Under the pieces are notes generated by a model, which ran no database searches, was not told the DNA's origin, and worked only from the letters and a program-made list of their open reading frames with translations. This document shows, in pieces, positions 37,095 through 62,540 of a stretch of DNA of 64,000 bases. Position numbers and translations under genes: made by a program. Position 1 is the first letter of the stretch. Each line of letters begins with the position of its first letter. This DNA comes from Schmidtea nova (lineage: Eukaryota): the NCBI GenBank assembly GCA_044892505.1, contig CM097882.1, positions 298,158,001 through 298,222,000 of the forward strand, written 5' to 3'.

Positions 37095-37235
37095 GTAAAT
37101 TTAATTTAATTTTTTAAAATAATAGCTATCAACGTGTCGTACTAACTAGGATTTTGTATTTTTGATTTCTAGGGAGATGTATAATTTATAATTTATAATA
37201 TTCTATAAATGTAACAAAACCCGTCATGATATTCC

Positions 37236-39213: not shown

Positions 39214-39251
39214 TGTAGCTTAAACGATGCTGTAAAGACTTTAACAGATTT

Positions 39252-40917: not shown

Positions 40918-42237
40918 ATGAGATATGAAATGGACAATAAATCTATCCAAAGCGGCACCTTCAGTCAGTACCAAATGAACCTTTCTAAAAGGGTATCTGC
41001 TTATGTTTTCCCTGGCATGGCAAAAGTTCAATTGGACATTGAACGGGTCAATTTGGGGAATTTCTATGAAAAATACACTTTTAAAATAGATGAAGTTAAA
41101 ACCGAGTTGACGAGTCCGAAAAAAATATTCTTTTCAACTCATATGATTTGCCAGCCGACTGAATCGTTCCCACGTGCCGAATTGAATACCTTGAAAAATA
41201 TTTCAAATCGAAATATAATTTCGATAGAATATCTCATTTTTTGCAGGTCGCCTAAGTTGCTACTGCTATACGAATTTTTGCCCGAAGATTTGTGGAGCAT
41301 GATTAAAAGGTTCAAAATGGAAAATTTCCAATTAAAAGACAAAATGATCATGACCCTCTCTCGACAGTTGATGTCCGGTCTGGAATATTTGCACGGCAAG
41401 AATATCGCTCACAGAAATATTAATCCGAAAGATATTCTCATTGATATTGCGGAATTAAGATTAAAAATATCAGGATTTTCTCAATCTCGCCCAATTCATG
41501 CAAACTGTATCAATTCAACTAGCATCGGTACTCAGTAAGTAAATTGTTGGGCTATGGTGTAAAACAATCCCTCTCCCCTTTTGAAGGGAGAGAATATAAT
41601 CAAATTTACATAATTATATACCAATTGTCTTTTTAGACTTCAGTTTATGTTAATGAAAAAAAGACGATTTAAATAAAAAAGATATATTAAGTGGTATAAA
41701 AGATTGAAATATATTTAAATTTAATATATAATAAAAATTATTTCCCTCTAAAAGTGGGAAGGGGTTTGTTTTATACCGTAGCCGATTTTTGCATATGCCT
41801 ATAAAAAGTTAATTACATTAATAATTAGATTATTCAGGGCCCCGGAATTGTTGTACGGAATTCAAAATTACGGAACAGTAATAGACGTGTGGAGTGCGGC
41901 CTGCGTCATTGCGTTTATGATTCTCCAAAAACCAATATTTGAGAGCGATTCAATTGAATCTATCAACAGTTTGATCGGATCACCGATAATAGACAAATTA
42001 TCAAATTATATTTCAAATGATCCGAAAGCGGTGAATAAATTATCAAAAATTATTACAAATAACTATTTTGCGCATTTGCTATCCCTTATGTTTGACTACG
42101 ATTTTAAAAACAGAATAACAGCTAAGCAAGTTCTGGATGATTTAAATAAAAAAATAGCTAAAACAGCTAAGCCAGATCTGGATTATTTAAATAATATAAT
42201 AGTTGATTTTCTGGATGATTTAAATAAAATAGTTTAG
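40918..42237 (+). CDS. Two-exon GSK3/CMGC-like probable pseudokinase
   Basis: Exons 40918-41534 and 41829-42237 (GTAAGT...AG, phase 2) join in frame as GTQ-LFRAPELLYG. DVWSAACV and QKPIF are present. HRD reads HRN, DFG reads GFS, and no Gly-rich loop or VAIK is evident. Confidence 0.75.
41550..41783. mobile_element. MITE-like inverted-repeat element in the kinase intron
   Basis: GGCTATGGTGTAAAACAA...CCCCTTTTGAAGGGA versus TCCCTCTAAAAGTGGG...TTGTTTTATACCGTAGCC. No TSD recognised. Confidence 0.55.
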
Positions 42238-44575: not shown

Positions 44576-46075
44576 AAACCCCAGTGTGGCAAAGGCTTTC
44601 ACTTATCAGACATACAATAAAGTTGTTACACTTTAACTGAACAAAATCTCAAAATCTCAATTATAGACTTGCAAATAATAACGAAACTATAAACTAATAT
44701 TCACTTAACAAGCATGTTTTTATTGGTCCAAAAGTCTTGTAATTAAATTACAAACTGATTGGACGTCATAAACCACAGACAAAAAGATGGGAAGAAGAAT
44801 TCTCAAAATAATTTTTTTCCACAGAAAAATTGGCACAAATGTGTCCTGACAATATTTTCAAAAATTATTTCAATAATTTCAATTTGTCTGAAAATTTAAT
44901 TTTTCTAAACAATACAATATGCGAGTAGGTAGATGTGTGGAGTCAAACACAAAGAAATGAGTCATAATGCGTGGGCGGAAAATTTTAAACAAAGAACTTT
45001 TTTTTTGGAACCCCTCCCCCGGGGGGGGGGGGGGTCAATTTTTTTTTTTTTTTTTCGCGCCAAAAATTTTTGAAATTTTTTTTTGAAATTTTTTTTTTTC
45101 GCGCCAAATTTAAATTTGAAAATTTTTTAACACAAATTTTTTTAACACAAATTTTTTCAACACAAATTTTTTTTTTAACATAAATTTTTTTTTTTAACAC
45201 AAAATTTTTTAACACAAAATTTTTTAACACAAAATTTTTTAACACAAATTTTTTAACACAAATTTTTTCAACACAAAATTTTTCAACACAAAATTTTTCA
45301 ACACAAATTTTTTCAACACAAAATTTTTTAACACAAATTTTTTTTTTTTAACACAAATTTTTTTTTTTTTCAAAATTTTTTTTTTAACAAAGAACTTTTT
45401 AAACAAAGAACTTTTAAATGCGTGGGCGTAAAAATTTTTAAACAAAGAACTTTTTTCGAGACCCCCCATGGGGGGGCTAAATTTTTTTTTTTTTTTTTTC
45501 AAAAAATATTTTTTCGCGCCAAAAATTTTTTAAATTTTAAAAATTTTTTTTTTTCACACCAAATTTATTTTAGTAAATTTTTTTTTTTTGACACAAAGTA
45601 TTTCAACAGAAATAAGAGTCATCAAAAAGTTTGCAACACGCGTGCAACTTAAACAAAGACAATGCAATACACGTGCAACATGAACAAAGACATTCAAAAT
45701 ACAAAATAAAATTTATTTATAAATATATCGTTGTGTACGTGTACAAAATTTAGTTTCAAAATTATTTACATCTGAATTATTACTCGGAATATTATTCATA
45801 GGAATATTATTCATTGTAATATTATTCATCGGAATACTAGTATTTTTCGGAATATTATTCTTTGGAATATTTGACATCTTCTCCAACCGTATGGATGCCG
45901 ATAATATCATTATAATTATTAATATAAATAAACTTATATAATGTAATACAATGGCTGTTTTTTCATTTTCAACTGTTTGATTTTGGTATCTGACTTCATA
46001 TTCTTTTTTAACAAAAGTTTGATTGATACATTTTAATCGTTCAACTATTTTCATCATTATTTTGGCAATCATTTT
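44576..46075 (+). repeat. Left TIR of Polinton A (~1.5 kb)
   Basis: Reverse complement of 61186-62540. Contains ~13-bp AACACAAATTTTT tandem units, C-run/G-run palindromes and the 3' half of the membrane-protein gene. Confidence 0.95.
45053..45523. promoter_or_regulatory. Three TTTCGCGCCAAA E2F-consensus sites in the left TIR
   Basis: Exact 12-mers at 45053-45064, 45097-45108 and 45512-45523; mirrored at 61739-61750, 62014-62025 and 62058-62069. Confidence 0.55.
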
Positions 46076-46294
46076 TTCAATGTCATTATTAATCACATTA
46101 TTTTTGGAAGGACATTGATTACATTGTAATTTTATTTGACTGCATTCAATGTTTGAGTAAAGACATATATCATTATAACTCGCACAAGTACTATCCTGTT
46201 TTCGAAACGGATGGGATGATTGACAATCTTCCAAAGCTTGTTCTCCTTCAGTATTGTGAACACATAATAATAAAATAACTATATTTAATTTCAT
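45713..46294 (-). CDS. Predicted type I membrane protein: signal peptide, Cys-rich ectodomain, TM helix, repetitive tail
   Basis: MKLNIVILLLCVHNTEG, six Cys in 38 residues, TM AIVLHYISLFILIIIMILSASI and IP(K/M/S)NN repeats. Confidence 0.7.
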   Translation of the reverse strand: MKLNIVILLLCVHNTEGEQALEDCQSSHPFRKQDSTCASYNDICLYSNIECSQIKLQCNQCPSKNNVINNDIEKMIAKIMMKIVERLKCINQTFVKKEYEVRYQNQTVENEKTAIVLHYISLFILIIIMILSASIRLEKMSNIPKNNIPKNTSIPMNNITMNNIPMNNIPSNNSDVNNFETKFCTRTQRYIYK

Positions 46295-46360
46295 TTTAAA
46301 AACAAAAACTAATATCAAAACTAAAATTGTTCATACTAAAAAATATTTATTAAAAAACAA

Positions 46361-46777
46361 TTATGCGTATCTTGCATTGTCAACTCTCCAAATTGGAGTA
46401 ACAACATCTTTTTTATCAATCTTGTACCCTTGAATAATAACGGTAACGAACCAATGTTCTTGATCCATGAAATCAATTGTTTGAAACGCATCATGGAACC
46501 GAGTTTTTCTGTTATTGATGTACATGGTTTCTTTACAAGATAAATTAACATTCATCTTTGAAAACAATCGATTTAATGTTATTATATTTTCTTTAGCAAT
46601 AATTATAGCAAGACTGTCATATAAAGATTTTGTTAACTTTACCGGATAAGATAATCGATACGGTATTTCATTAACCAAAAAATAAATTCGGCTGTCGTAG
46701 TATATCTGGACTGGTTTTACCTCAGTCTGATATATTTTTTCTTCGCTTATATCTAAATTTTGTTTTCTTGAATTCAT
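46361..46777 (-). CDS. 138-aa Polinton accessory protein with an LSCKE (LxCxE) motif
   Basis: Intact ATG-to-stop ORF, tightly packed with its neighbours; family unknown. Confidence 0.7.
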   Translation of the reverse strand: MNSRKQNLDISEEKIYQTEVKPVQIYYDSRIYFLVNEIPYRLSYPVKLTKSLYDSLAIIIAKENIITLNRLFSKMNVNLSCKETMYINNRKTRFHDAFQTIDFMDQEHWFVTVIIQGYKIDKKDVVTPIWRVDNARYA

Positions 46778-47031
46778 TTTATAAATTGTGACAATATTTT
46801 ATAAAATGTCTTTGTATTTATACTAATGACTGGATGTCTTTGTCCAATCATATTCATGCATTTATCTTGCACACACTATGCATCTGTATTGCAATGTCTT
46901 TGTTGTATGCGTGCATGTTTAATTAATTTGTATATGTTCAATAATGAGCTTTTACAGATAAAAACAATCACAGAATATGTTCTGCTACTAGGGTTCTGTT
47001 ACCAGGGTTCTGCTCGGAATGTTCTGATACA

Positions 47032-47066
<35 letters not shown>

Positions 47067-47326
47067 GTTTTTGTATTTATTTCATAATTATTATTAATAT
47101 TATTATTCATCAAAAATAAAAACACATTCTTACTTATTCTCATTTAATCAAAACGTTCATAACTAAAATACTTTTTTAAAACCCAAAACACTTTCTTATT
47201 TAATAAAAAGTTGATTAAAATAATTAAAACATTAACATAAAAAGCTATTACAAATAAAGAATTCAAAACTCAAAAATAATTTCAAAAACTTTTATTAAAA
47301 AAAAAAATATATAATAATAATAACAA

Positions 47327-47952
47327 TTACATATCAGATGGTTCACCGCCAAGAGATTGGCAACCATCATTATCATCTACACAATCATCAACCTTTCGGT
47401 GGCACTCATCACAATCAGGTGATTGAGGCGATTCCATAGAAGATTGTTCATCTATAGTTGATGCTTCAATCTCAATTGAATCATCAATTGGTTCGGGAGT
47501 TGAGTTGAGCCATCTCTCTTGTTCCATCTCCTCCTCGATAATCTCCTTCAATTCTTTTGTTTCGAATTGATTGAGGGTATTTCGGAGAACCCATACTTGT
47601 AATTTGCGAATCCTATCCACACAGTGCCCGCATTGATAGGCGCACAATATATGTTCGGCCATAAAAGGCAAATCATTGTTGAGATTTTCGAGGTGTTCCT
47701 TTAGAATCTTATTAACATCTAGTCCCGTCAAAACGTGAATTTTGTATGGGAACAGCTCCGGTGCTGTATAGGTCAGCGTCTGCATCAGATTGGGAAACAT
47801 CTCAGCCAGTTTGGTGTAGATGACGGACATGCGTTTTTCTAAAAATAAAATATATTAAATTTGAAAATATAATAATTTTATTATTTACCATTTTTTAAAT
47901 TCTTTATTTTTTGCGACATAATTGTAGATATAAACTTTGTCAGTTTGTTCAT
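47327..47952 (-). CDS. Two-exon 191-aa Polinton accessory protein with acidic C-terminus
   Basis: Exon 47952-47889 (MNKLTKFISTIMSQKIKNLKN), 50-nt GTAAAT...TTTAG intron 47888-47839, then exon 47838-47327 in frame (E-KRMSVIY...). Confidence 0.7.
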
Positions 47953-48057
47953 AGTTTATATACGAAACAAACACACATGATTTAGAAAACGATACATAAT
48001 GAACCAATCAGAGTGAAGCATGCACAACATGTCTTTATTCTCGAAATACACACAGAG

Positions 48058-48070
48058 CCAATCAGAATCG
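48058..48070 (-). promoter_or_regulatory. CCAAT-box motif CGATTCTGATTGG upstream of the 47952 gene (second CCAATCAG at 48004)
   Basis: Identical 13-mer in the same relative orientation upstream of the pol leader at 54640-54652. Confidence 0.5.
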
Positions 48071-48097
48071 TGCATTTCTAATGCATCGATATTGCAT

Positions 48098-48565
48098 TCA
48101 TGAGTCACATGTTAGTATGAAATCAACAAAGGCTTTATCTTCTATAACTGATTTTATATCGTTAATAATATCATCAACCATAGTTGAATAATCTTTGTTT
48201 TTTAATCCTAATATGACTAATTTCCCACTTGCAAATATATTTACACACATGGGATTATATTTGGTATATCTCAAAGCTGGAAATAATTCTGGCTCGTAAA
48301 CACACGGTATTAATTTCGATAATTCATTCAAATTACAAATAAATCATAAATCCGCAGTTACAGTTATCGATTGTATTGTTAAATCGTAAAACTCAACTTG
48401 TTCGTCACTAATGAATTCCTTGCATCCCATTATTCTATATCTTCCTGTTTTAAAGTATATTTTAGGGTATTTCCCACTTCGATCTACAATTTGCTGGGGT
48501 TTTCCATTTGGAAATTTCATGTGTGATACATCTGTCTTACCCTTGTAATTAATGTTTCTAATCAT
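48098..48565 (-). CDS. TATA-binding-protein-like gene with one in-frame TGA (48346-48344)
   Basis: The two listed ORFs are the same frame. IQSITVTADL*FICNLNELS...YEPELFPALRY...VNIFASGKLVILGLK matches TBP repeat 2 (YEPELFPGLIY...LIFVSGKVVLTGAK). IYFKTGRYRIMGCK corresponds to repeat 1. Confidence 0.85.
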
Positions 48566-48658
48566 TACTGAAAATATTTTTAAATGAAATAATTACTTTG
48601 AGAACCAGTATTTAAAACAAATATAAACAATAATATTAATTAAATATAATTTTTAAAT

Positions 48659-49282
48659 ATGGAATTAAGAAATGATGCAGTATTTCAAATTGTTGGTCCG
48701 AGCGGGAGTGGAAAAACTTTATTTGTTTGTAAATTATTGCAATCGAAATTATTCAAGTCAAAATTTAATAATATTTATTGGCATAGGGGTGCTGACGACG
48801 AAAGTGGAATGACACAAGATCAGTTTTGTAAAGTAAAAATGACAATCATTAAAGGTTTCGATAAAAACTGGTCATCTAGATTAAAACATGGTGATGTGAT
48901 TATCATTGACGACTTGTATCAAGAAGCAAATAAAGAAAAGGATTTCAATAATTTATTTACGAAAATCAGTAGACATAAAGGTGTTACTGTTATTTTTATA
49001 ACTCAGAATTTATTTCATCAGGGCGGTAGTCATCGAACTCGTAATTTAAATGTTCAATATCTTGTTGTTTTTAAAAATCCTAGAGATGCAACAGTTATTG
49101 ATTTTCTGGCAAGACAAGCTTATCTTTCTAATCGTAACTTTTTGATTGAAGCCTTTCAAGATGCTACAAAATCTCCTCATGGATATATTTTCCTGGATTT
49201 TACTCAACAACGCAGTGATGATGTACGCGTTAGAACTGATATTTTTTACCCTGAAGGAGCCATGGTTTATAAACAAAGTTAA
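48659..49282 (+). CDS. A32/FtsK-HerA-like genome packaging ATPase
   Basis: Walker A GPSGSGKT, Walker B VIIIDD, SRH, ITQNLF and FKNPRD; intact 207 aa. Confidence 0.95.
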   Translation: MELRNDAVFQIVGPSGSGKTLFVCKLLQSKLFKSKFNNIYWHRGADDESGMTQDQFCKVKMTIIKGFDKNWSSRLKHGDVIIIDDLYQEANKEKDFNNLFTKISRHKGVTVIFITQNLFHQGGSHRTRNLNVQYLVVFKNPRDATVIDFLARQAYLSNRNFLIEAFQDATKSPHGYIFLDFTQQRSDDVRVRTDIFYPEGAMVYKQS

Positions 49283-49302
49283 TTTAGTTTTCAATCGTAA
49301 TC

Positions 49303-49821
49303 ATGTTAATGAAATCTCGAGTAAAGTTTGAGCCATTGATAAAGGCTAGAACAAAGAAAGCGGGAAAGAAAACAAAGAAACTATTTACAAAGAAATCTAT
49401 AAAGAAATCAAGAAAGAAATCCAAGAAAATACTTATGGATAATATTCCCAAAAATAATCAAATTAATTTGAAATCTAATGCTAAACAAGCACATCATCGG
49501 AGTTTACCGTTTTTTAATGCATTACTTAAAGCCCCTTCCGTTAGAAGAATGGGTATTCTTCAATCGTTTCCTAGTTACGTCATCGATGATTTACTCGCTA
49601 TTTTAATTAAAGTCGTGCGAGGTAAAATGAATCTAACTCCATCTAATCGCCGTGTTTTGAACAGGCATAAAAAACCATTGTTGTCGCTAGTAAACTCAAA
49701 AAATAAAAAACTTATGCGTAAAGTAATATATAAACAACAAGGTGGTTTTATCGCAGCATTGTTACCATTAGCATTATCTTTATTGGGAGGTGCTGGTTTA
49801 TTGGGAAAAAGAAAGTCATAA
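49303..49821 (+). CDS. Basic putative virion core protein ending in QQGG plus a hydrophobic helix
   Basis: Lys-rich N-terminus, LNRHKKPL, and QQGGFIAALLPLALSLLGG; lies between the ATPase and integrase genes. Confidence 0.75.
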   Translation: MLMKSRVKFEPLIKARTKKAGKKTKKLFTKKSIKKSRKKSKKILMDNIPKNNQINLKSNAKQAHHRSLPFFNALLKAPSVRRMGILQSFPSYVIDDLLAILIKVVRGKMNLTPSNRRVLNRHKKPLLSLVNSKNKKLMRKVIYKQQGGFIAALLPLALSLLGGAGLLGKRKS

Positions 49822-49824
49822 ACA

Positions 49825-50046
49825 ATGGGTCAATCATTACCTAATTTAAATTTAAATTGTAAATCTTCTTGTTGTAATGGAGAAGATCTGGACGAACCCA
49901 AAAGACGACGCCGGTTTCGGTGGAGTCGAAAAGCTAAGGAAAAAAGCACAGAAGTCGAAACAACAGACACAAAGTTGGTTATCGGGGCAACTTGCATACA
50001 GTCTAAACAAACCGATGTTGAAACGGTTTCCAACTCGAGCATATAA
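49825..50046 (+). CDS. Candidate overprinted ORF (MGQSL...CKSSCC...PKRRRR) overlapping the integrase 5' end
   Basis: First ATG after the upstream stop, ACAATGG context, 73 open codons, offset from the integrase frame. Confidence 0.4.
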   Translation: MGQSLPNLNLNCKSSCCNGEDLDEPKRRRRFRWSRKAKEKSTEVETTDTKLVIGATCIQSKQTDVETVSNSSI

Positions 50047-50923
50047 AACATATAGAATCAATGATTTGTGGCAAATGGATTTGATGGAAATGATTCCGTA
50101 TTCCAAAATTAACAAGGGGTACAAGTATATTTTAACATGTATTGATGTTTACAGTAGATTTGCTCGAGCAATTGGAGTCAAATCTAAATCTGCTAATGAC
50201 ATGGCAATCGCTATCAAGACTATGATGAAAAAGGATCGGCCAACTAATTTACAAACTGATTTGGGTAAATTTAAATTTAAATTTATACATATTTAATATT
50301 TTTTAGGAAAGGAATTTTACAACAGTAAAGTCAAGGAAGTTATCAAGGGAATAAATCATTATTCGGTATTCTCACAATTCAAAGCCGCTCATGTCGAGAG
50401 ATTTAATCGAACTTTGCGTGATCGATTGAAAAAATACTTTGTTTTTAAAGGCAATAAAACCTGGATTAATGTCTTACCTCAATTGATTCATAGTTATAAT
50501 CATAGTGCTCATCGGGGTATAAATGGCAGGAAACCGGCAGAAGTAGTTGATACTGAAAATATTGTGAGTGAAGTGAAAGTAAAGAAACCAAAATATAAAG
50601 TTGATGATCATGTTCGAATTAGCAAGATTAGTACATCGCCATTCGTTAAAAATTTTGATAATAATTGGAGTGATGAGGTATATCAAATATCGAAAGTCAA
50701 CACAGTGCAGAATCCTGTCATGTATACTATTCGTGACTCTGATAACAATATAATCAGCGGCAAATTCTACGAACAAGAATTACAAGTTATTCCTAAACCT
50801 ACGATATTTAGAATTCAAAAGATTTTGAAGACTAAAATGGTAGGTAAGGATAAACAATACTATGTCAAATGGCATGGATATAAAGAACCATCATGGATCT
50901 CGTCAAAAAATCTAGTAAAGTGA
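49877..50923 (+). CDS. Retroviral-like (rve) integrase with C-terminal chromodomain, one 42-nt intron
   Basis: WQMDL, QTDLG|KEFYN joined across intron 50265-50306 (GTAAAT...TTTAG, contains an in-frame TAA), HVERFNRTL, and chromodomain YYVKWHGY. Confidence 0.95.
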
Positions 50924-51936
50924 ATTTTTACACTATTTTACCGAGCAATAGTTGTCCGAATATCCATCCGGATAATACCGCAAGTAAATTCATGGTGAAT
51001 TTACCTAATCCAATTTATTTAAACGGAAATTGGGAAGTTGCTCTAATGGATTTTACATTTGTTTACCAACCTTTTCCATATTATAGTTATTGTAAAATTT
51101 ATTACTATAAAAAGAAAACAATTGTTGCAAATGCGTTTTTCTCGATATATAATAATAATGGCCATCTGAATGTTCCAACTCACACCATTGATCCTGATAT
51201 CGAATTGTGGCAACGAGGTGGAAGAATATTTCTCACGTGTAATGTTGTTCCGTATACAATTACATTTAATGATCTTGAGATAGCAAAACGAATGGGAAGT
51301 AATAAACTGACAATAACATGTAATGAAGAAGAATGTGAATTCAAAGTTATGCAAAACTTGGCCAGTAATGATGAAGAAATAATTACTTTTACTATATCGT
51401 ATGATCGTGAAGAAGGACATGTATTCACATTCAAGGAAGAGTTGTATATAACGCATCTAGATGAATTACAGAAATATATTAGCGATAATTGTTCGGATAT
51501 TTTTACAGTTGTCGAATTAAATAAATTGTTCAAATTCAAACTCAAAGAAAAAATCACTAAAGTCCGATTTGATAAATACTTGGTCAATACATTGGGATTA
51601 GATAAGGATACATTTACCGATAAAAATATCATTTTTGGTGTTCGTCAACCGAAAATATCTAAACTTCATCAGCAATTATTCGTGTATACAAACATTATCG
51701 AACCCATTATTGTTGGTGATTCCTTGGTTCCTTTACTAAAATCGGTATGGATTGAAAAATACGAGCCAGATGAAATTGTTCAAATAGTAATGGATAATCC
51801 AATGTATTTATCTGTTTCAACATCCTGTATAAACAATATAGAAATAAATATCCGATATGACAGCGGAAGATTTATAAAATTTCCAAAAGATTCAAAAACT
51901 CACTTAACTCTACATTTTCGAAAAAACGATGAGTAA
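50893..51936 (+). CDS. Minor capsid protein (penton, single jelly-roll)
   Basis: FYTILPSNS...NTASKF...LPNPIYLNGNWEVAL, VYTNIIEPIIVGD..VPLLK, IEINIRYDSG and LTLHFR; intact 347 aa. Confidence 0.9.
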   Translation: MDLVKKSSKVNFYTILPSNSCPNIHPDNTASKFMVNLPNPIYLNGNWEVALMDFTFVYQPFPYYSYCKIYYYKKKTIVANAFFSIYNNNGHLNVPTHTIDPDIELWQRGGRIFLTCNVVPYTITFNDLEIAKRMGSNKLTITCNEEECEFKVMQNLASNDEEIITFTISYDREEGHVFTFKEELYITHLDELQKYISDNCSDIFTVVELNKLFKFKLKEKITKVRFDKYLVNTLGLDKDTFTDKNIIFGVRQPKISKLHQQLFVYTNIIEPIIVGDSLVPLLKSVWIEKYEPDEIVQIVMDNPMYLSVSTSCINNIEINIRYDSGRFIKFPKDSKTHLTLHFRKNDE

Positions 51937-52301
51937 TCCCGATATAGTTTCAATGTACAGTGATAGCCAAACTGGTGGCGAATTACCGTATTTTGTCGGT
52001 AAACAGTATGGATCAGGTTGGTTGAAAACTATTGGGAGATTTGCACTTCCAATTCTTAGACGACTAGGTAATATCGGTATGAATACTGCCAAGGACGTTA
52101 TCATGAAAGATAATAAAATATTACCGTCATTGAAAACCAATGCTTAATAAAGCTATACCTGCTGTAACTCAAATGCTTCCTACAATTACAAGTATGTTTA
52201 CAAAAAATAAGGAACCTGAATCTGTACCGGTAGGACCAAGACGTAAACGAAAACGTATAAACAAACGAATGAAAGGTCATGGAACTATATTTGAAGAATG
52301 A
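51929..52301 (+). CDS. Putative virion core/membrane-active protein, frameshifted near 52141
   Basis: SQTGGELPYFVGKQYGSGWLKTIGRFALPILRRLG. An adjacent frame continues LNKAIPAV...GPRRKRKRINKRMKGHGTIFEE to a TGA that overlaps the MCP ATG. Confidence 0.7.
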
Positions 52302-53518
52302 TTTGCGGTAAATCTGAATTATGTCTTTTTGATCGACCATCACCTCAAGCAGTTATTGAATATGGGGCGTTTGAAGATGTGTTTCCAATGAATTCTATTA
52401 CAGATAGTAGAAATGATGTTGAATTTTACATTAATGGTTCTCAAACCGAATATTTGGATTTGAACGATACATTATTGTCCGTTACAATCAAGGTTGTAGA
52501 TAAAGATAAAAAGGCTCTAGTCGATGCGAGTGATGTAATTCCCAATAATTACCTGTTTCATACACTTTTCAAAGATGTAATTCTCGGATTTAATAATATA
52601 AAAATCGAGGGTGGAAACAATACATATGCGCACAAGGCAATAATCGAAACTATTTTAAATTATACGAATGATGCGAAAGAAACATGTCTTACTCCAATGG
52701 GATATGGTTCAGCTGACGATCGGAAAAAATGGATCAAGGGATCTAAACTTTTCAACATGTGTTCGTCATTACAACTGGATTTTATGGATCAACCTAAATA
52801 CTTACTTCCCTGAGTTAATGTACATATTAGATTGAAGCGATCTGATTCTGCATTATCATTGAAATCGGCAGCTGGGAAACCAATAATCCAAATAGTTGAT
52901 GCAAAATTGATGGTAAGAAGAGTTCGATGTGAATCTTCAGTTTTGGCCGGTCATCAAATTGGTTTAAATAAAAAACATGCAATTTATCCATTAAAATCCA
53001 AAGAAATCGTATCGTTTGCAATCGGTAAAGGGGCATCATCATTTTACAAGGAGCAAATATTTGGAGATAGACGAATGCCTAATTTCATTCTTGTGGCTTT
53101 TCAATCCGAAAATCCATATAATGGATCTTATACCGAGTCAACATCTACATTCAAACATTTTAATGTGACTTCATTAACATTGTCGAAAAATACCGATTAT
53201 CGTGAAACATATACCCAGGATTTTGAAAATGATAATTTTAGTGCATCATATATGCAAAGTCTTGTCCGAAATCTAGGTTATTTGGATAAAAACTTGAATT
53301 GTGGTATAGGTTTAGATGAATTTAAATCTAGTTATCCATTCTTTACATTTGTTCTGGCTCCCGATTTTGATTTGAATCAAAGCCAAATCCCTCAAAATGG
53401 AAATTTACGACTCGATATAAAGTTTGCAAAAGCTATTGATGAACCTGTTCATGTAGTTATATATGGAGTTTTTGAAAATGAAGTACAAATTACTGCCAAT
53501 AGAACAATATTGGTTTGA
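52298..53518 (+). CDS. Major capsid protein (double jelly-roll, hexon-like) with in-frame TGA at 52811-52813
   Basis: CGKSELCLFDRPSPQ, YLDLNDT, PNNYLFHTLF, KYLLP*VNVHIRLKRS, FKHFNV, LAPD and GNLRLDIKF. Both listed ORFs are in the same frame. Confidence 0.92.
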
Positions 53519-53571
53519 GCAGAAATCAAACAGTATAAATGATCAAAGTTATTATTTTTATTATTATTATT

Positions 53572-53951
53572 ATGGAGTAAGATTTTTTAATTGATTAATT
53601 ATTTATTTTTTAATTAGTTCTATTCAGGTATTAAAACAAGGTAAAAAACTATTGGGAAATCAATTTATTGGAGTATTTCCTCTGGATAAAATACCTTATT
53701 TGAAAATGAATCAAGCCATCATTGTAAATACTCAGACATCTACGTTGGGCGGTGAACATTGGATTGCAGTTTATGTGAAACCAGATCGAATACATGTATT
53801 TGATCCCTTTGGATATTATTATCCGAATTTACTTGTTCGAAAACTTCAAACTATTGGTAAACCTATTGTGTATAATAGAATTCGGTATCAGCATCCTTTA
53901 ACAATCACTTGTGGTGAACATTGCCTTGCATGGTTAAAATCAATGTTATAA
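53572..53951 (+). CDS. Adenain-like cysteine protease, one 41-nt intron
   Basis: ATG GA|GTAAG...TTAG|T (intron 53577-53617) gives MDSIQVLKQGKKLLGNQFIGVFPLD. Catalytic H (GEHW), D (FDPFG), Q and C (QHPLTITCGEHC). Confidence 0.92.
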
Positions 53952-53983
53952 ACAATTTATTTTAATATATTTTATTTGAAAAA

Positions 53984-54385
53984 ATGTCTTGTTATTTTAT
54001 CGATTTTTATGGTTATAATGAAATGGGTGGAACAACAATTAAGGAATTATGTATTATGAATGTTAATAATATTTTCACACCCCAGTATTATATATACAGT
54101 GATTTATCTTTCTGGCCTGATCGTATAGAATCGTTTGAAGGACAAGATTATTTTTGCCCAAAATGTATAATGGATGATATCACAGATAAAGGAGCTATTT
54201 TCTATGTTACCGATAATGAAAAGATGTATGTTTTGAAGAAGTATTTCCCGAAATTAAGATTAATCAAATATACTTATAAAGAAGTTGAATATGTTCCTGA
54301 AAACATTTCATGTCCCTATAAAGACCATTGTATGTGTGCCTATAAAGGGTGCTTGTCTGCTGTTGTAGATTATTTAAAACAATAA
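53984..54385 (+). CDS. 133-aa accessory protein, DnaQ/DEDD-exonuclease-like N-terminus with Cys/His tail
   Basis: YFIDFYGY...IKELCI and CPYKDHCMCAYKGC; the fold assignment is an inference. Confidence 0.55.
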   Translation: MSCYFIDFYGYNEMGGTTIKELCIMNVNNIFTPQYYIYSDLSFWPDRIESFEGQDYFCPKCIMDDITDKGAIFYVTDNEKMYVLKKYFPKLRLIKYTYKEVEYVPENISCPYKDHCMCAYKGCLSAVVDYLKQ

Positions 54386-54639
54386 ATGTATAATGTGATT
54401 TTATTATTTTTTATTATTATTTTTTAAAATATTATTATTTTTATTATTATTAATATTAAATATTATTATTTTAATCATAAAGACATGACCAGTGCATGAT
54501 CAGTGCGTGATAAGCACATGATGAAACACGTCATATCATGTCTTTGTCACGATACAAAGCAATATCGTGACGTCAAACACACATAAACAAAGGTACATTA
54601 TGTGTGCAGCATGTGTGCATGTATTTGCCTATCCTATCT

Positions 54640-54652
54640 CGATTCTGATTGG
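54640..54652 (+). promoter_or_regulatory. CCAAT-box motif CGATTCTGATTGG ~100 bp upstream of the pol leader ATG
   Basis: Same 13-mer as 48058-48070, followed by a TATA-like TATATAGTATATA. Confidence 0.5.
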
Positions 54653-54752
54653 TCGGTTAATAAAATTCATCTTTATATAGTATATACTTGCATTATTTCG
54701 TCACTTTACTTACAAATTTTTTAAATCAATTTTAAATTAATATCAATCAATT

Positions 54753-57700
54753 ATGAACAATATCCGAATCGTAAAGGAAAGACATCTCGCAGGAGGTGTT
54801 AATGGTAATTTTATTATTATTATTTTTAATTTTATTATAATATATGCTTTCAGAAATGAATATTGCGCGAAATATCGCCACAGTTATGATGCGACAAGAT
54901 GACCAGTCGCCATCTAGAAATGTTGCTCCAAGAATACGAGTTGGAGAACACAATGGTATTAGATTTTTGGGTAATATTTATTTTTATTATTACTATTATT
55001 TTTATTATTATTTTACTTTAGTTAATAATGATCGCAACAACAACAACAATGCCGAAGCATCAAGGATGGGTGCATTTTCTTTAATGGGACGAACTGATTG
55101 TAATTTTATTTATTTATTTTATAAATATTATTTTACAATGAATTTTTCAGATAATATGAGAAATGTGGATATAGATGATGAGCTCCAGAATGACGTTCCG
55201 AATGTTGCCGACGTCCCGAAAGTTGTCCAGAATGATGTCCCGAGTAATGCTCTTGTTAATCCGGATGCCCCAATTTATGGGAAGACAAAATGTAGGCATT
55301 TATCTTTATTTATTTTTTAATTTAGCATATTTTATTTAACTTTTTTATTTAAATAATACTTTTTATATATTATTTTTAAATAATTTAGTAATGGTTTGTA
55401 AAAACAATTACTAAATGATTTAAAAGTATAATATTAAAAGTAATTATAATATGAAATATTCATTTACTTTTTTTTTTTTTTTGATAATTAACATGTTTGA
55501 AATATAGATTTTTGATAAAAAGATACAATTTAGAAATAGAATTTTATATTATGAAATAGTGATTTTTTTTTTGATAGATACAATTTTGAAATATAATTTT
55601 ATATGATGAAATAGTGATTTTTGAAATAGAATTTTATATGATGAAATAATGATTTTTGATAGATACCATTTTGAAATATTATTTTATATGATTAAATAGT
55701 GATTTTTTGATAGATACCATTTTGAAATAGAATTTTATATGATGAAATATTTATTTTTTGATAGATACAATTTTGAAATAGAATTTTATATGATGAAATA
55801 TTTATTTGTTGATAGATACCATTTTGAAATATTATTTTATATGATAAAATAGTGATTTTTGAAATAGAATTTTATATGATGAAATATAGATTTTTGATAG
55901 ATAACATTTTTGAAATAGAATTTTATATGATGAAATAGTGATTTTTGATAGATACCATTTTGAAATAAAAATTTATATGATGAAATATTTATTTTTTGAT
56001 AGATACAATTTAGAAATAGAATTTTATATGATTAAATATTGATTTTTTATATAATATTTGGTTTTATTATCTTATATATTTTGAATTTATTTAAATATTT
56101 ATTTAAATATTTATTTAAATTCAGGTTCAACCTACAAAAATTTTTGCAACAGTAGGTTCCATAATGATTGTCATATCATTATGGAAAAATACTACTCGTT
56201 GCCATATAATACTGTTACCCACCTCATATGCCCCACCTGTAAACTTATCGAAATTTGCCCATATATTGACTTCTTTAATAGGCACTGTAACCATCTTTCA
56301 CAGTTTCAGCCTTCTAAGAAAATTTTATTTAAACAACTTTTTCCTAATTTTATTAATCCTATAAATAATACTATAAATAATAATAATAATAATAATCTAA
56401 ATAATACTATGAATAATACAAATAATATAAATGATACAAATAATATAAATGATACAAATAATCTAAATAATACAAATAATATAAATAATACAAATAATAA
56501 TAATCAAACAAATAATATAAATAATACAAATAATACAAATAATACAAATAATATAATTAATACAAATAATAAACGAAAACATATTAAAATTCCGGATTCA
56601 GTTCCTACTAAAATTCAAATAATAGATCTCACTGATGATGAATTAATAGTCATCAGTGATGATGAAAATTTAAATAATAATGTAAATAATTTAAATAATT
56701 TAAATAATAACCAAATCGGATATGGTGCCGTCGAAATCGTCAATGACCTAAATAACAATCATATAATTGTTAAAATGGATGTAGAAAATCTTAATTTGAA
56801 AACGGTCTCAGTACCGACAATTCTTTTAGATAAATTAACTTTTGAAGTGAACAAATATAAAACTGTCATAATCCAATTCTGTTTGAAGGTGGAATTTGAG
56901 AAGGACGATGAATTACAATCGTTCGTTATCTCAAATTCTGCCAGGGTCTGAAGTGATACCTTCATTGAGGAAGGTATTGCTCTTTTAAATGAAAAAATCA
57001 TCACGATAAATGAGAAAGGTAGTAACTGGACTATCTCAAAAGTTGAATACATTAGCTTTGTCTTGACCAGATACTCTGAAATAACTCGATTAAGCGGAAG
57101 TCAGTTTATCGAAACTCCGAAATCTTTAAGGAAAAAGAAATGTTTAGTAAATGTAGTAAATCAGGACAACTTTTGTTTTTTATATAGTTTCCTTTCTATA
57201 ATTAAATATGAGAGTTTAACAAATGAAACTCGTTGCATTCCTTCCTCTTATAATCTTTCACAATTGAATTATGACCCCAATGATATGCCTATGAGACTTG
57301 GTAATATAAGTAAATTTGAGAGACAAAACCCAGGTTATAGCGTCAATGTTTTGTCATATGATGAAAATCCCTTATTAGATCTTATTGATGAAAATGAGGA
57401 TATTGTCCTTAAACATCCTTTTATTGACTTAATTTACAAGTCAAAAGTTGTAGGTGGTACCCCAATAAATCTGTTATTGCTTCAAAACAGAAAAACTTTT
57501 CATTATATAGGCATCTTTGATTTGAATCGTTTTTTGAATTGCCGTAATAGCGCTATAACCCCTGTAAGGATTTGTAGTAAATGGTGTCCGAGATGCTTAA
57601 ATGGTTTTCGAAATGATGAGGTTTTCAATAGGCATAGGGGTCTTTGTGATAAGAATCAAACTGGTACAACTTTGTACACTTTACCAAAAAATAAGATGCT

Positions 57701-60187
57701 GGAATTTACTGAATGGCGCAAAACAGTGACTCCTCCCTTTGTTATTTATGCCGACTTTGAGGCAATCTTACCTGCGGACACCAGGTATTTCCAAAAGCAT
57801 TTGCCTATTTCAGCCGGTTTGTTATTAATTAACAACTTTACTGGACAAAAATTCTATAAATCTTTTGCCGGCCTTAATTGTGTAGAGGATTTTCTAAATG
57901 AAATAGAGCTTATAAGTCGCCACATAGTAACACCGTACTATTATAAAAACGCTAATAAAACTATGATAATTAGCCATGAGCAACAAATTGAATTTAACAA
58001 CAGCACAATTTGTTATTTATGCAAAAAGCTATTATGTCGACCTGTTAGGGACCATGACCATTTCACCGGTCTTTTTCTTGGAGCAGCTTGCTCAGAATGT
58101 AATAAAAATAGGCAGATTAGACATACCCTTCCTGTCATCTTTCACAATTTAAAGGGGTATGATCTACACCATATTCTAAAATATGGTTTATCTAAATATC
58201 GTAAATGGAATATTAGCTGTATTCCATTAACCAGTGAGAAATTTCTTAGTCTTTTTGCTAGGATTGACTCTTTAACTGTCAAATTCATAGACTCATACCA
58301 ATTCGTCAGCGAGTCTTTAAATAATGCTGTCAAAACTCTTACTTCCTTACCACTCACCGAATCAGAATTTCAGGGCACTATAATTACAGCCAAGGGCATT
58401 TTTCCGTATGATGCTGCAACTTCCTTAGAAGTTTTACATTCTACTTTAGCTCTCCCACCGATCTGGAAAGATGTAAAGCCAGAAGAATATGCAATGGCGC
58501 AAAGAATATGGGTTGAAACATCATGTAATTCACTTTTTGATTACATGATGGTTTATTTAAAACTGGACGTTTTTTTACTTGCTGATTTTTTCCAGCAATT
58601 CCGTTTCAAGTCTATTAATCATAATAGACTTGAACCTCTGAATTTCCTCGGGATTCCAAGTTTATCTTGGAGTTCTGCCTTAATGACCTTAGAATCTCCA
58701 ATCGAGCTCCTCACCGATATGGAAATGTACAATTTTTTCGAGGGCGGTATCCGTGGCGGACTAACTTTTATTAACAAACACTATGTAAAAACAAGCCCGG
58801 ATACCGCATTGCTTTACATAGACATCAATAACTTGTATGGATGGGCCTTAAGCCAACCTTTACCTTGTTCTAATTTTGAATGGGTCACAGATGACCACTT
58901 ATTAAATGAAATCGTTTGTCAGTGCACATCGGTTGATCTAGATGCACTTCATTATGGCTACACCATAGAAGTGGATTTGGAGATACCGGCATCAATTCAT
59001 GACAAACTGGATGATCTTCCAGTTGCCGCTGAAAAGATGTGTGCACCGGGATCCAAGGTTGAGAAGCTGATGCTCACGCATAATCCAAAGAAGAACTATG
59101 TTCTTCATTGGCGGCTTCTGCAACTATTTGTTAAATTAGGCATCGTGATAACAAAGGTCCACAGGGCCATAAAATTTAATCAAAGCAAAATTTTTTTAAA
59201 TTATATTAATACCAACACGACGTTACGATCAGCGTCAACAACTAAATTAGATAGGGATTTTACAAATTATTGAATAACAGCCTTTACGGCAAAACCGTAG
59301 AAAATTTAAAAAAGCGTATTAATTTGCGCCTATGTAATAATCCTGAAAAATTACTTACTTATTGTTCGAAACCTACGTTTCGTAAAACTAATAAAATCGA
59401 TAATGATCTTATTTCTGTCTTGCTGCGAAAGGAGTCAGTATGTTTGGATAGACCCAGCTACATCGGTCAAACTGTACTGGATTTATCCAAACTAAGAATG
59501 TACCAGCTACAGTATGTAGAGTTACAAAAATATCGTGACGACTATAACTGTAAGATTAACATCGTCGCTGGGGATACTGACTCCTTTTTTCTTGAGGTCA
59601 AAAACTGTAGTCTTGACACTCTTTTACCGGCTATGGTTAATGATTGCTTGCTGGACACCTCCAATTATGACCCTATGGATCCTTTATACAACAGAAACCT
59701 TGACTCTGTCATTGGAAAGTTCAAAGACGAGAGTAAAGGGATGTTGTATAAAGAGTGGGTGTTTCTTAGACCGAAATGCTACAGCTTAATGGGTGATGAG
59801 GAAAGTATGAAGGCTAAGGGGATATGCATGAAGGATACTGGACTAACTCATCAGTCGTATCTCGATTGCTATTTAAATAATAAGATCTATACGGTCCCCC
59901 AGTTTAGGATAACATCTAAAAATCACCAGCTTTTTAGTGTGAAAAATAATAAGCGGGCATTAAGCTGTAGAGATGACAAGCGTAATTGGGTAGGGAAAAA
60001 TAAAAGCCTGGCATATGGCCATTATAGAGGGGGTAACAGTATTTTAGATACGGAGCAGCCTCAGCAGAATCAACAACAGCTACAACAACAACAACAACAA
60101 CAACAACAGCTACAACAACAACAACAGCTACAAGATGATGATCCGTATTTCTTTTACGAAGAGCCGGAGCATAATTATTTGCAATGA
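54753..60187 (+). CDS. polB: Protein-primed DNA polymerase B precursor with a predicted four-intron leader; one in-frame TGA and one frameshift
   Basis: Exons 54753-54804, 54854-54970, 55022-55099, 55151-55291 and 56125-60187. TGA 56949-51 is followed in frame by EKGSNW. Motifs YADFE, RDHDHFTG, IFHNLKGYD, YIDINNLYG, LNNSLYGKT, AGDTDS and LRPKCY. One T is missing at ~59256-59261 (expected DFYKLLNNSLYG). Confidence 0.93.
55490..56045. repeat. ~50-bp degenerate tandem array inside the 833-nt pol intron
   Basis: Repeated GATAGATAC(C/A)ATTTTGAAATAGAATTTTATATGATGAAAT units. Confidence 0.9.
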
Positions 60188-60199
60188 TGGCTAGATATA

Positions 60200-60600
60200 A
60201 ATCTAATCCGAAAATCAAAAAAAAAAAAAAATAACCGAAAATCAAAAAAAAAAAATTTAAGAAAATCAAAAAAAAAAAGAAGTTATTCAGAAGGATCAAG
60301 AAAGATATGAGAATGCACAATCGGCCCTCTTCAGGGCCACAATTTATGATTGAAAAACAGTTTTTTGAAATTTTAGATTTCTAGAAAACAGAAAGGAAAA
60401 CAGATTGTTAAAAATGATTATGAAAACAGAAACCGAAAATACTAGTGATTATTAAACCAGAAATAATTTGAAACAGAAACCGAAAATACTATTGATTATT
60501 AAAACCGAAAACAAAATACATAAAAGAAATATGAAAACCGAAAAGAAAAACCGAAAAGAAATATGAAAACAGATAAAGAAACAGATTGAGAATGAAATAA
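60200..60600. repeat. A-rich degenerate repeats (AAAACCGAAAA-containing units) downstream of polB
   Basis: Recurrent AAACCGAAAAT / AAACAGAAACCG units. Confidence 0.7.
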
Positions 60601-60739
60601 TGGTCCTCTTTAGGGCCTTATTTTTTGATTGTAAATAATATTGCGCAATCAATAAAAACTATGAAAATATTTTATTTCGTTTTGTTTCTTTGTGTTTAGC
60701 ATTATTTTTATAAGTTAATATTATTAGTTTTATAAGTTA

Positions 60740-60744
60740 TTATA

Positions 60745-60828
<84 letters not shown>

Positions 60829-60886
60829 AGTTACTATCACTATTATCACTAATATTATCAATATTATTATTATTATTATTATTATA

Positions 60887-60937
<51 letters not shown>

Positions 60938-61137
60938 AGTTACTATCACTATTATCACTANNNNNNNNNNNNNNNNNNNNNNNNNNNNNNNNNNNNNNNN
61001 NNNNNNNNNNNNNNNNNNNNNNNNNNNNNNNNNNNNNNNNNNNNNNNNNNNNNNNNNNNNNNNNNNNNNNNNNNNNNNNNNNNNNNNNNNNNNNNNNNNN
61101 NNNNNNNNNNNNNNNNNNNNNNNNNNNTAATATTATC

Positions 61138-61185
<48 letters not shown>
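60740..61185. repeat. (ATT)n satellite interrupted by a 167-N gap (60961-61127)
   Basis: Direct reading. Confidence 0.95.
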
Positions 61186-61187
<2 letters not shown>

Positions 61188-62540
61188 AATGATTGCCAAA
61201 ATAATGATGAAAATAGTTGAACGATTAAAATGTATCAATCAAACTTTTGTTAAAAAAGAATATGAAGTCAGATACCAAAATCAAACAGTTGAAAATGAAA
61301 AAACAGCCATTGTATTACATTATATAAGTTTATTTATATTAATAATTATAATGATATTATCGGCATCCATACGGTTGGAGAAGATGTCAAATATTCCAAA
61401 GAATAATATTCCGAAAAATACTAGTATTCCGATGAATAATATTACAATGAATAATATTCCTATGAATAATATTCCGAGTAATAATTCAGATGTAAATAAT
61501 TTTGAAACTAAATTTTGTACACGTACACAACGATATATTTATAAATAAATTTTATTTTGTATTTTCAATGTCTTTGTTCATGTTGCACGTGTATTGCATT
61601 GTCTTTGTTTAAGTTGCACGCGTGTTGCAAACTTTTTGATGACTCTTATTTCTGTTGAAATACTTTGTGTCAAAAAAAAAAAATTTACTAAAATAAATTT
61701 GGTGTGAAAAAAAAAAAATTTTAAAAATTTAAAAAATTTTTGGCGCGAAAAAATAATTTTTGAAAAAAAAAAAAAAAAAAATTAGCCCCCCCGGGGGGGG
61801 TCTCGAAAAAAGTTCTTTGTTTAAAAATTTTTACGCCCACGCATTTATAAGTTCTTTGTTTAAAAAGTTCTTTGTTTAAAAAAAAAATTTTGAAAAAAAA
61901 AAATTTGTGTTAAAAAAAAAAAATTTTGTGTTGAAAAATTTTGTGTTGAAAAAATTTGTGTTGAAAAAATTTGTGTTAAAAAATTTTTGTGTTAAAAAAT
62001 TTTCAAATTTAAATTTGGCGCGAAAAAAAAAAATTTCAAAAAAAAATTTCAAAAATTTTTGGCGCGAAAAAAAAAAAAAAAAATTGACCCCCCCCGAGGG
62101 GGGGGGTTCCGAAAAAAAAAGTTCTTTTAAAATTTTCCGCCCACGCATTATGACTCATTTCTTTGTGTTTGACTCCACACATCTACCTACTCGCATATTG
62201 TATTGTTTAGAAAAATTAAATTTTCAGACAAATTGAAATTATTGAAATAATTTTTGAAAATATTGTCAGGACACATTTGTGCCAATTTTTCTGTGGAAAA
62301 AAAATTATTTTGAGAATTCTTCTTCCCATCTTTTTGTCTGTGGTTTATGACGTCCAATCAGTTTGTAATTTAATTACAAGACTTTTGGACCAATAAAAAC
62401 ATGCTTGTTAAGTGAATATTAGTTTATAGTTTCGTTATTATTTGCAAGTCTATAATTGAGATTTTGAGATTTTGTTCAGTTAAAGTGTAACAACTTTATT
62501 GTATGTCTGATAAGTGAAAGCCTTTGCCACACTGGGGTTT
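61186..62540 (-). repeat. Right TIR of Polinton A (~1.35 kb)
   Basis: Inverted copy of 44576-46075 with fewer AACACAAATTTTT units. Includes ORF 61189-61548, a duplicate of the membrane-protein 3' half. Confidence 0.95.

Follow-up and report, generated by a model that had tools for sequence, protein, structure and literature searches.

The closest described systems are Polinton/Maverick elements of the adintovirus type, the class with OTU and PF03175 'Alpha' PolB (PMC8502044, PMC8097293). An element in a stretch of 64,000 nucleotides of the Schmidtea nova genome (the window) resembles them in its inverted repeats, in the 6-bp duplications of its sister copies and in encoding a protein-primed PolB (pPolB), an rve integrase, an A32-type ATPase, an adenovirus-type protease and a double jelly-roll capsid protein. 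Core genes of vertebrate Polintons are reported to be intron-free (PMC8097293), as are those of a nematode element in the accessible part of its description (10.1101/2022.07.12.499685). Unlike these vertebrate and nematode Polintons, the element in the window has spliceosomal-type introns in pol and, by prediction, in the integrase and protease genes, and it contains a TBP-like gene; intron-free core genes are a reported trait and not part of the Polinton/Maverick definition. Spliceosomal introns inside Polinton-like elements are shared with dinoflagellate elements, in which, according to the available text, the introns are mobile introners mostly inserted after integration (PMC11957031). Compared with the introners as that text presents them, the introns described here are inherited by a whole family.

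The polymerase shares with pPolB of type TP-vOTU-EXO-PALM a little-finger-like terminal protein with a Ser in a helix-strand loop, followed by a candidate OTU-like segment with a motif Cys (10.1101/2024.03.18.585575, available part). It differs in having an additional N-terminal region, composed of a spliced leader, a double zinc-finger-like domain, a linker and a Gly motif, which the same part of that work does not describe. The portions available of PMC10748475, PMC8502044, PMC11296320 and PMC7998265 likewise contain nothing on spliced pPolB. A search of the open literature turned up neither a spliced pPolB leader nor this zinc-finger-like domain, nor the Gly motif in pPolB; multi-exon Polinton genes may be described in subscription papers, in supplements or in repeat-library entries.

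In adenovirus E2B, a spliced 5' exon supplies the start of a replication protein, and pTP and the polymerase are made as two proteins through alternative acceptors from a three-codon leader. A sequence-only reading of the window had likened its pol gene to E2B, a likeness that turned out to be loose. Compared by layout and not by sequence, the window gene would encode one polyprotein with a 129-codon leader of four exons, a second acceptor was not found, and the comparative data hold one conserved exon chain only. The closer adenovirus parallel is the protease processing of the terminal-protein precursor. In the available part of PMC4246237, the adenovirus protease cuts (M/I/L)xGG/x or (M/I/L)xGx/G, the precursor pTP is trimmed by this protease, in one instance at a site where Gln is accepted at P4, and this processing is proposed to alter nuclear localisation.

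The element and its copies

The element was assigned to Polinton/Maverick because of its gene set, its 6-bp target duplications and its repeated 31-nt end. It encodes pPolB (PF03175, E 2e-23; PF02945 was also matched in exon 5), a retrovirus-like (rve) integrase (PF00665, E 2e-8) with a C-terminal chromo domain, an A32-type packaging ATPase (PF04665, E 5e-7) and an adenovirus-type protease (PF00770, E 5e-6). The Pfam search of the window gave no match for the capsid protein; its double jelly-roll assignment comes from the top Atlas match (0.98, with PF21738 on 68% of the cluster members), the recognition value of which was below the threshold. A 6-bp target-site duplication was found at 10 of 10 paired sister ends, and the flanks of the window copy are inverted and have no such duplication. 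The 31-nt end occurs exactly 3,359 times (1,694 + 1,665) in the 1.25-Gb genome. The family, of about 1,700 copies, is both large and young, because about 97 of the 150 best exon-5 matches, counted by hand, keep open frames of at least 1,300 aa. In the window copy, pol is interrupted twice, by a stop codon (56949-56951) and by a frameshift near 59.26 kb, and functional evidence was therefore drawn from the family and not from this copy.

Several other features of the window were recorded. The TBP-like gene lies inside the Polinton at 48101-48565 on the minus strand (PF00352, E 2e-9); it is stop-broken in the window copy and forms an open frame of 160-164 aa in most of the 150 best sister matches. 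A literature search on this gene yielded one review, unrelated to it. Short GT-AG introns are predicted in the integrase gene (50265-50306, phase 1), in the protease gene (53577-53617, phase 2) and in a minus-strand gene (47839-47888, phase 1 if the upstream frame is coding). An Asn-rich reading frame is duplicated, one per inverted repeat (45713-46294, minus; 61189-61548, plus). The same flank stands in inverted orientation on both sides of the window copy (44576-44923 and 62192-62540), and six occurrences of this stretch within about 220 kb suggest local rearrangement via element ends. A 243-nt inverted repeat at 44576/62540 was considered as the element end and rejected, since it is local flank. 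The 3' part of a family-B pol gene at 37500-39215 on the minus strand is cut by other sequence, and many family-B matches are paired head to head at distances of 6-41 kb. Fragments of host-like genes, with short introns, lie at 36500-37100 and 40918-42237 and comprise an aminopeptidase-like one (judged by eye) and a protein kinase (PF00069).

Structure and conservation of the pol leader

The sequence-only reading had proposed four GT-AG introns, all of phase 1, at the 5' end of pol (Table 1), and both the sequence of the window and the 99 family copies agree with it. The single frame that it had drawn from the ATG of exon 1 was also confirmed, with 388 + 56 nt giving the 148 codons that precede Met 56181. 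The four introns are 86-92% A+T and the exons 39-43% G+C, and each of leader exons 1-4 of the window copy is stop-free in the spliced frame. The AATAAA of the upstream gene is at 54381. Between this signal and the leader stand what we take to be a CCAAT-type and a TATA-like box; the former lies at most 160 nt before the leader ATG in 94 of 98 copies, and the latter is present in 97 of 98. In the last 250 nt of intron 4, a CCAAT-like box was found in none of 98 copies, and only 13 of 98 have an in-frame ATG within that intron. From its sequence context, pol is likely transcribed from a promoter directly upstream of 54753. Four unlabelled sequencing runs of one study were compared with exons 1-4. 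Introns 1 and 3 were covered, as was the start of intron 4, with no splice joint; the runs therefore behave as DNA and are uninformative on expression.

Table 1 Features of the element and of the 5' part of its pol gene (window positions).
Feature	Position	Strand	Remarks
Polinton/Maverick element, 17.3 kb	44924..62191	+	ends AGTAG...CTACT, long terminal inverted repeats
Likely pol promoter	54645..54680	+	presumed CCAAT-type box 54645, presumed TATA-like box ~54674
Exon 1, 52 nt, start ATG, LAGG motif	54753..54804	+	ATG 98/98, LAGG 97/98, pN/pS 0.19
Intron 1, 49 nt, phase 1	54805..54853	+	GT-AG
Exon 2, 117 nt	54854..54970	+	pN/pS 0.42; lengths always in frame
Intron 2, 51 nt, phase 1	54971..55021	+	GT 38/40 and 59/59
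Exon 3, 78 nt, Asn run of varying length	55022..55099	+	pN/pS 0.57; 16 lengths, all in frame
Intron 3, 51 nt, phase 1	55100..55150	+	GT-AG
Exon 4, 141 nt, Asp/Val/Pro/Asn repeats	55151..55291	+	pN/pS 0.48; last base is T of the Cys codon
Intron 4, 833 nt, phase 1, rich in tandem repeats	55292..56124	+	632-1699 nt across copies
Exon 5, pPolB body	56125..60187	+	PF03175, PF02945; broken in window copy
Double zinc-finger-like domain	56125..56330	+	C-x6-7-C-x4-H-x3-7-C plus C-x2-C-x14-17-H-x2-H
Asn-rich linker	56345..56711	+	presumed basic patch ~56570, presumed SIM-like hydrophobic/acidic motif 56643
QIGYG, predicted adenain-type cleavage motif	56712..56726	+	directly ahead of terminal-protein domain
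Terminal-protein (D1) domain	56757..57065	+	predicted priming Ser 57021

Conservation was followed in two sets of family-A copies. The first consisted of the 40 best leader matches, window copy included, and the second of 60 of the 150 best matches to the exon-5 start, chosen regardless of intactness; 59 of these 60 had the leader within 2.6 kb and one did not have it in that stretch. In the first set, donors of introns 1-4 were GT in 40/40, 38/40, 40/40 and 39/39 copies and acceptors AG in 40/40, 40/40, 40/40 and 39/39, and in the second set all four introns were GT-AG in 59/59 copies with leader. Pooled over these 99 copies, which are kin and recombining and whose counts are not independent, 393 of 395 donors were GT and 395 of 395 acceptors AG, five acceptor-2 sites (three in the first set, two in the second) having been placed at the nearest AG after an alignment slip. 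With the window copy as reference, exon lengths were off-frame in 0, 0, 0 and 1 of 97 sister copies (exons 1-4) and intron lengths in 77, 29 and 65 (introns 1-3); the repeat units of exons 3-4 are multiples of three, which makes in-frame length change there partly automatic. A stop codon occurs in the leader of 3 of 98 copies. The pN/pS ratios of all four leader exons (Table 1), estimated from random disjoint allele pairs, are below 1 with every interval below 0.7, and judging from them the leader exons are under purifying selection. The most conserved stretch of the leader spans the exon 1-2 junction (97/98 and 98/98 copies). Splice sites and leader are thus conserved in sister copies, a check that the sequence-only reading had proposed, and by this comparison the splicing of the four-intron leader is very likely.

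Exon alleles are shuffled among family-A copies (mean r2 0.03-0.09 between exons and 0.08-0.27 within), a pattern that fits recombination with distance and would need no special exon modularity. The leader had been called modular, and the word holds on the evolutionary scale, where leaders vary between families and exon alleles recombine, and not for a special modularity of exons. Four further candidate signals or origins were considered. An apparent depletion of AATAAA in intron 4 (28/98 copies versus 97% under single-base shuffles) was rejected, since it disappeared once dinucleotides were shuffled, where AATAAA ranked 32 of 64 hexamers. That the leader arose when a single exon-intron unit was duplicated in tandem is unproven, exon pairs falling mostly within the shuffle range (best 9/500). 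LAGG is near-invariant in family A and absent from the leaders of the other families, B1, B2 and C; it was dismissed as a general cleavage site and kept as a family-level lead only. A flatworm-type spliced leader ends in AUG, and joined to any of these acceptors it would lose the frame, so this origin was rejected.

Families B1, B2 and C were found from 16 of 42 matches to the second pol fragment of the window, and their pol identity is 66-69%. B1 has three leader exons of 52, 54-66 and 105 nt in 10 parsed copies, one further copy being rearranged. In B2, which is 91% identical to B1 directly after the acceptor, the exons measure 7, 60 and 201-261 nt and include a Met/Pro repeat (6/6 copies). 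In C, a likely untranslated intron is accompanied by a single coding exon, composed of Lys/Pro/Ser/Asn/Met repeats, in 18 of 20 copies, the remaining two being a variant that the anchor missed. In all three, every coding leader intron is of phase 1 and the last one splits the same Cys codon. Introns 1-2 of B1 and B2 can be aligned, and their phases are therefore largely inherited and not independent. Pairwise intron alignments are mostly within the shuffle range, and a common origin of the introns is not clear. In family C, an apparent two-exon antisense gene is nested in the long pol intron (L106 at about 2400-2910; also L117 and L125).

The N-terminal domains and the candidate cleavage motif

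Intron 4 interrupts the first Cys codon of the double zinc-finger-like domain, and the exon 4/5 joint yields Cys in 98 of 98 copies, which bears out the claim that the leader is joined to a Cys/His-rich region. A profile search with the region after this Cys gave 966 relatives (E up to 0.001), and a domain of about 70 residues was defined from the best 150 of them. Among the matches listed, all 16 aligned relatives that span the position have the first Cys, and Met 56181 is a conserved internal residue of the domain in 23 of 24 relatives; the same Met is kept in 97 of 98 family copies, and three conserved Cys and one His lie upstream of it. Structure models gave pLDDT 82-96 over most of the domain. 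Pfam, Atlas and PDB sequence searches named no family for it; from its Cys/His pattern we infer that it is a zinc-binding domain. A word-index search with the N-terminal piece of the window copy gave nothing useful, and IMG/VR scans yielded at most distant relatives that lack the domain.

Six of 89 public loci hold the domain. In all six, which are metagenome relatives, the Cys codon is whole, an ATG stands 2-7 codons upstream, and the protein begins Met-x(1-6)-Cys with no intron there (6/6); a TATA-like box lies shortly upstream in five and an acceptor-like signal directly before the ATG in one (L150). Among the matches listed, 36 database proteins have the domain, with the first Cys at position 4 or earlier in 11, at 5-15 in 3 and later in 2. 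The calls of the other 20 begin at the internal Met or leave out the first Cys in another way, which agrees with the earlier statement that such a leader is hidden from ORF finders. Because relatives have a whole Cys codon near the start Met, the leader is, on this comparison, an addition to an older Met-x-Cys start. As the gene structure of family A reads, its zinc-finger-like domain is completed only via splicing. Some relatives have the Cys/His domain in two or three tandem copies, and one has classical C2H2-like fingers ahead of it (P0046, P0034, P0024, P0020). N-termini that resemble translated intron ends (P0157, P0017, P0061), together with the acceptor-like signal of L150, hint at 5' introns nearby in other relatives.

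The variable linker with its basic patch and SIM-like motif, labels that are our own assumption, is common to the families, and the equivalent region has pLDDT below 50 in a family-B model. QIGYG, directly after the linker, is present in 18 of 19 sister copies. Among the relatives listed with enough upstream sequence, [QM]xGG or [QM]xGxG was found within 60 residues before the terminal-protein domain in 18 of 43, against 0.8 expected, and in 25 of 43 no Gly motif was found in the 60 residues scanned. Each of the 18 has a copy of the motif 16-31 residues from the domain, and four of the 18 form one cluster. The motif also occurs in small basic proteins of the element. The family-B model is disordered up to the Gly motif and continues with a little-finger-like domain, residues 127-240 matching Y-family little-finger domains in ten of the 12 top rows (best Z 7.9 at rmsd 2.6 over 92 aligned), a fold that the accessible part of 10.1101/2024.03.18.585575 reports for the Polinton terminal protein. 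In the OTU-like segment after the terminal protein, a Cys-bearing motif is conserved in alignments; the model truncates this domain.

Leader, zinc finger and linker may form a pro-region that is cut off by the protease of the element, a possibility for which we see about even chances. It is suggested because of the placement and enrichment of the motif, the little-finger fold directly after it, the PF00770 protease and the AVP consensus. What speaks against it is the published model, as given in the available part of 10.1101/2024.03.18.585575, in which the OTU domain and not adenain processes pPolB, downstream of the terminal protein.

A proposed precursor and its alternatives

Our preferred explanation, which we consider moderately probable, is a constitutively spliced, lineage-gained leader on a pPolB precursor with a pro-region. 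The pol gene would be transcribed from a promoter directly ahead of 54753, and constitutive splicing through the four phase-1 introns would give one polyprotein that begins with the low-complexity leader and continues through the predicted double zinc finger, the linker and the terminal protein to the OTU-like protease and the polymerase. The lineage would have gained the leader by insertion behind the ancestral start Met and ahead of the first zinc-finger Cys; the leader's shared phase 1 would be due mostly to descent, and its later divergence to repeat expansion and recombination between copies. Everything ahead of the terminal protein would be a pro-region, with predicted roles in nuclear targeting or host binding, and the adenovirus-type protease would cut at QxGxG, as adenovirus pTP is trimmed to TP. 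Counted against this explanation is that several relatives have no leader and that leaders vary from family to family, so that the leader may carry little function. It also counts against it that introns 2 and 3 could be retained in frame in the window copy, as they could in 24/40 and 15/40 copies. That the constitutive product is the main isoform can be held with good confidence on the comparative evidence.

The same variation between families, together with the absence of the leader in the six metagenome relatives, would also fit constitutive splicing of a leader that is disordered filler, acquired by drift in a nuclear element and tolerated there, with no cleavage before the terminal protein. 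The repeat-rich exons 3-4, with pN/pS of about 0.5, speak in its favour, as do the short introns of the integrase and protease genes, which suggest that intron gain is general here. However, drift does not sit well with the near-invariant stretches of exons 1-2 and the low pN/pS of exon 1, nor with a Gly motif that is fixed in position and enriched across distant relatives, and we regard this explanation as unlikely.

Less probable still is that the symmetrical exons serve regulated alternative splicing and thereby give several polymerase isoforms, which is close to what the sequence-only reading had concluded. All coding leader introns are of phase 1 in four (sub)families, and the chance of four out of four such introns is 0.8-4.5%, before allowing for descent, with a phase-1 intron rate of 30% or with 46% G at codon position 1. 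As that reading had said, any skipping stays in frame, and skipping of exon 2, 3 or 4 singly keeps the Cys as well; yet joining exon 1 or 2 to exon 5 turns this Cys into Gly or Ser, and skipping exons 3 and 4 together loses it. Exon symmetry keeps the frame, yet does not thereby show skipping. The phases of B1 and B2 are largely inherited, as described above, and the integrase intron is likewise of phase 1. At 54956, the site of the proposed alternative in-phase donor, only 14 of 40 copies have GT. The 99 family copies with leader all share the same number of exons, with exon gain or loss in none, and a conserved motif runs across junction 1-2. Alternative splicing as a purpose of the leader thus found no backing, and minor skipping of exon 2, 3 or 4 may occur.

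It is very improbable that pol starts at Met 56181, with the upstream exons being non-coding or forming a small gene of their own. In favour, the Met is kept in nearly all copies, many database relatives are called from it and an ATG frame (54844-55320) runs through introns 2-3 in the window copy. Against it stand the position of the Met inside the domain, downstream of three conserved Cys and a His, a read-through tail behind exon 4 that ranges from 3 to 25 aa, the absence of a CCAAT-like box before exon 5, and off-frame lengths of intron 2 in 29 and of intron 3 in 65 of 97 copies.

A wider form of the precursor explanation is tentative and, taken as a whole, rather doubtful. The animal Polintons of this clade would make a polymerase precursor like adenovirus pTP, in which an undescribed double zinc finger with nuclear-targeting motifs would be cut off by the virion protease at Q/M-x-G-G or Q/M-x-G-x-G. 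In this host, a phase-1 exon cassette would have made the precursor dependent on the spliceosome; exchanged and rearranged between families, the cassette would act as a host-interaction module that evolves fast, and the host would gain a splicing switch on replication of the element.

The earlier interpretation is partly supported. By its conservation across copies the spliced leader is a real, conserved gene structure, and a pTP-like precursor would be a better lead than alternative splicing on the E2B pattern. ORF-based annotation cuts pol of this family short inside a conserved domain. The pol, integrase and protease genes likely depend on the spliceosome, which would tie expression of the element to the nucleus and offer a possible control point to the host. 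The conserved protease-type motif makes polyprotein processing in Polintons testable, including whether the maturation of adenovirus pTP has a Polinton forerunner.
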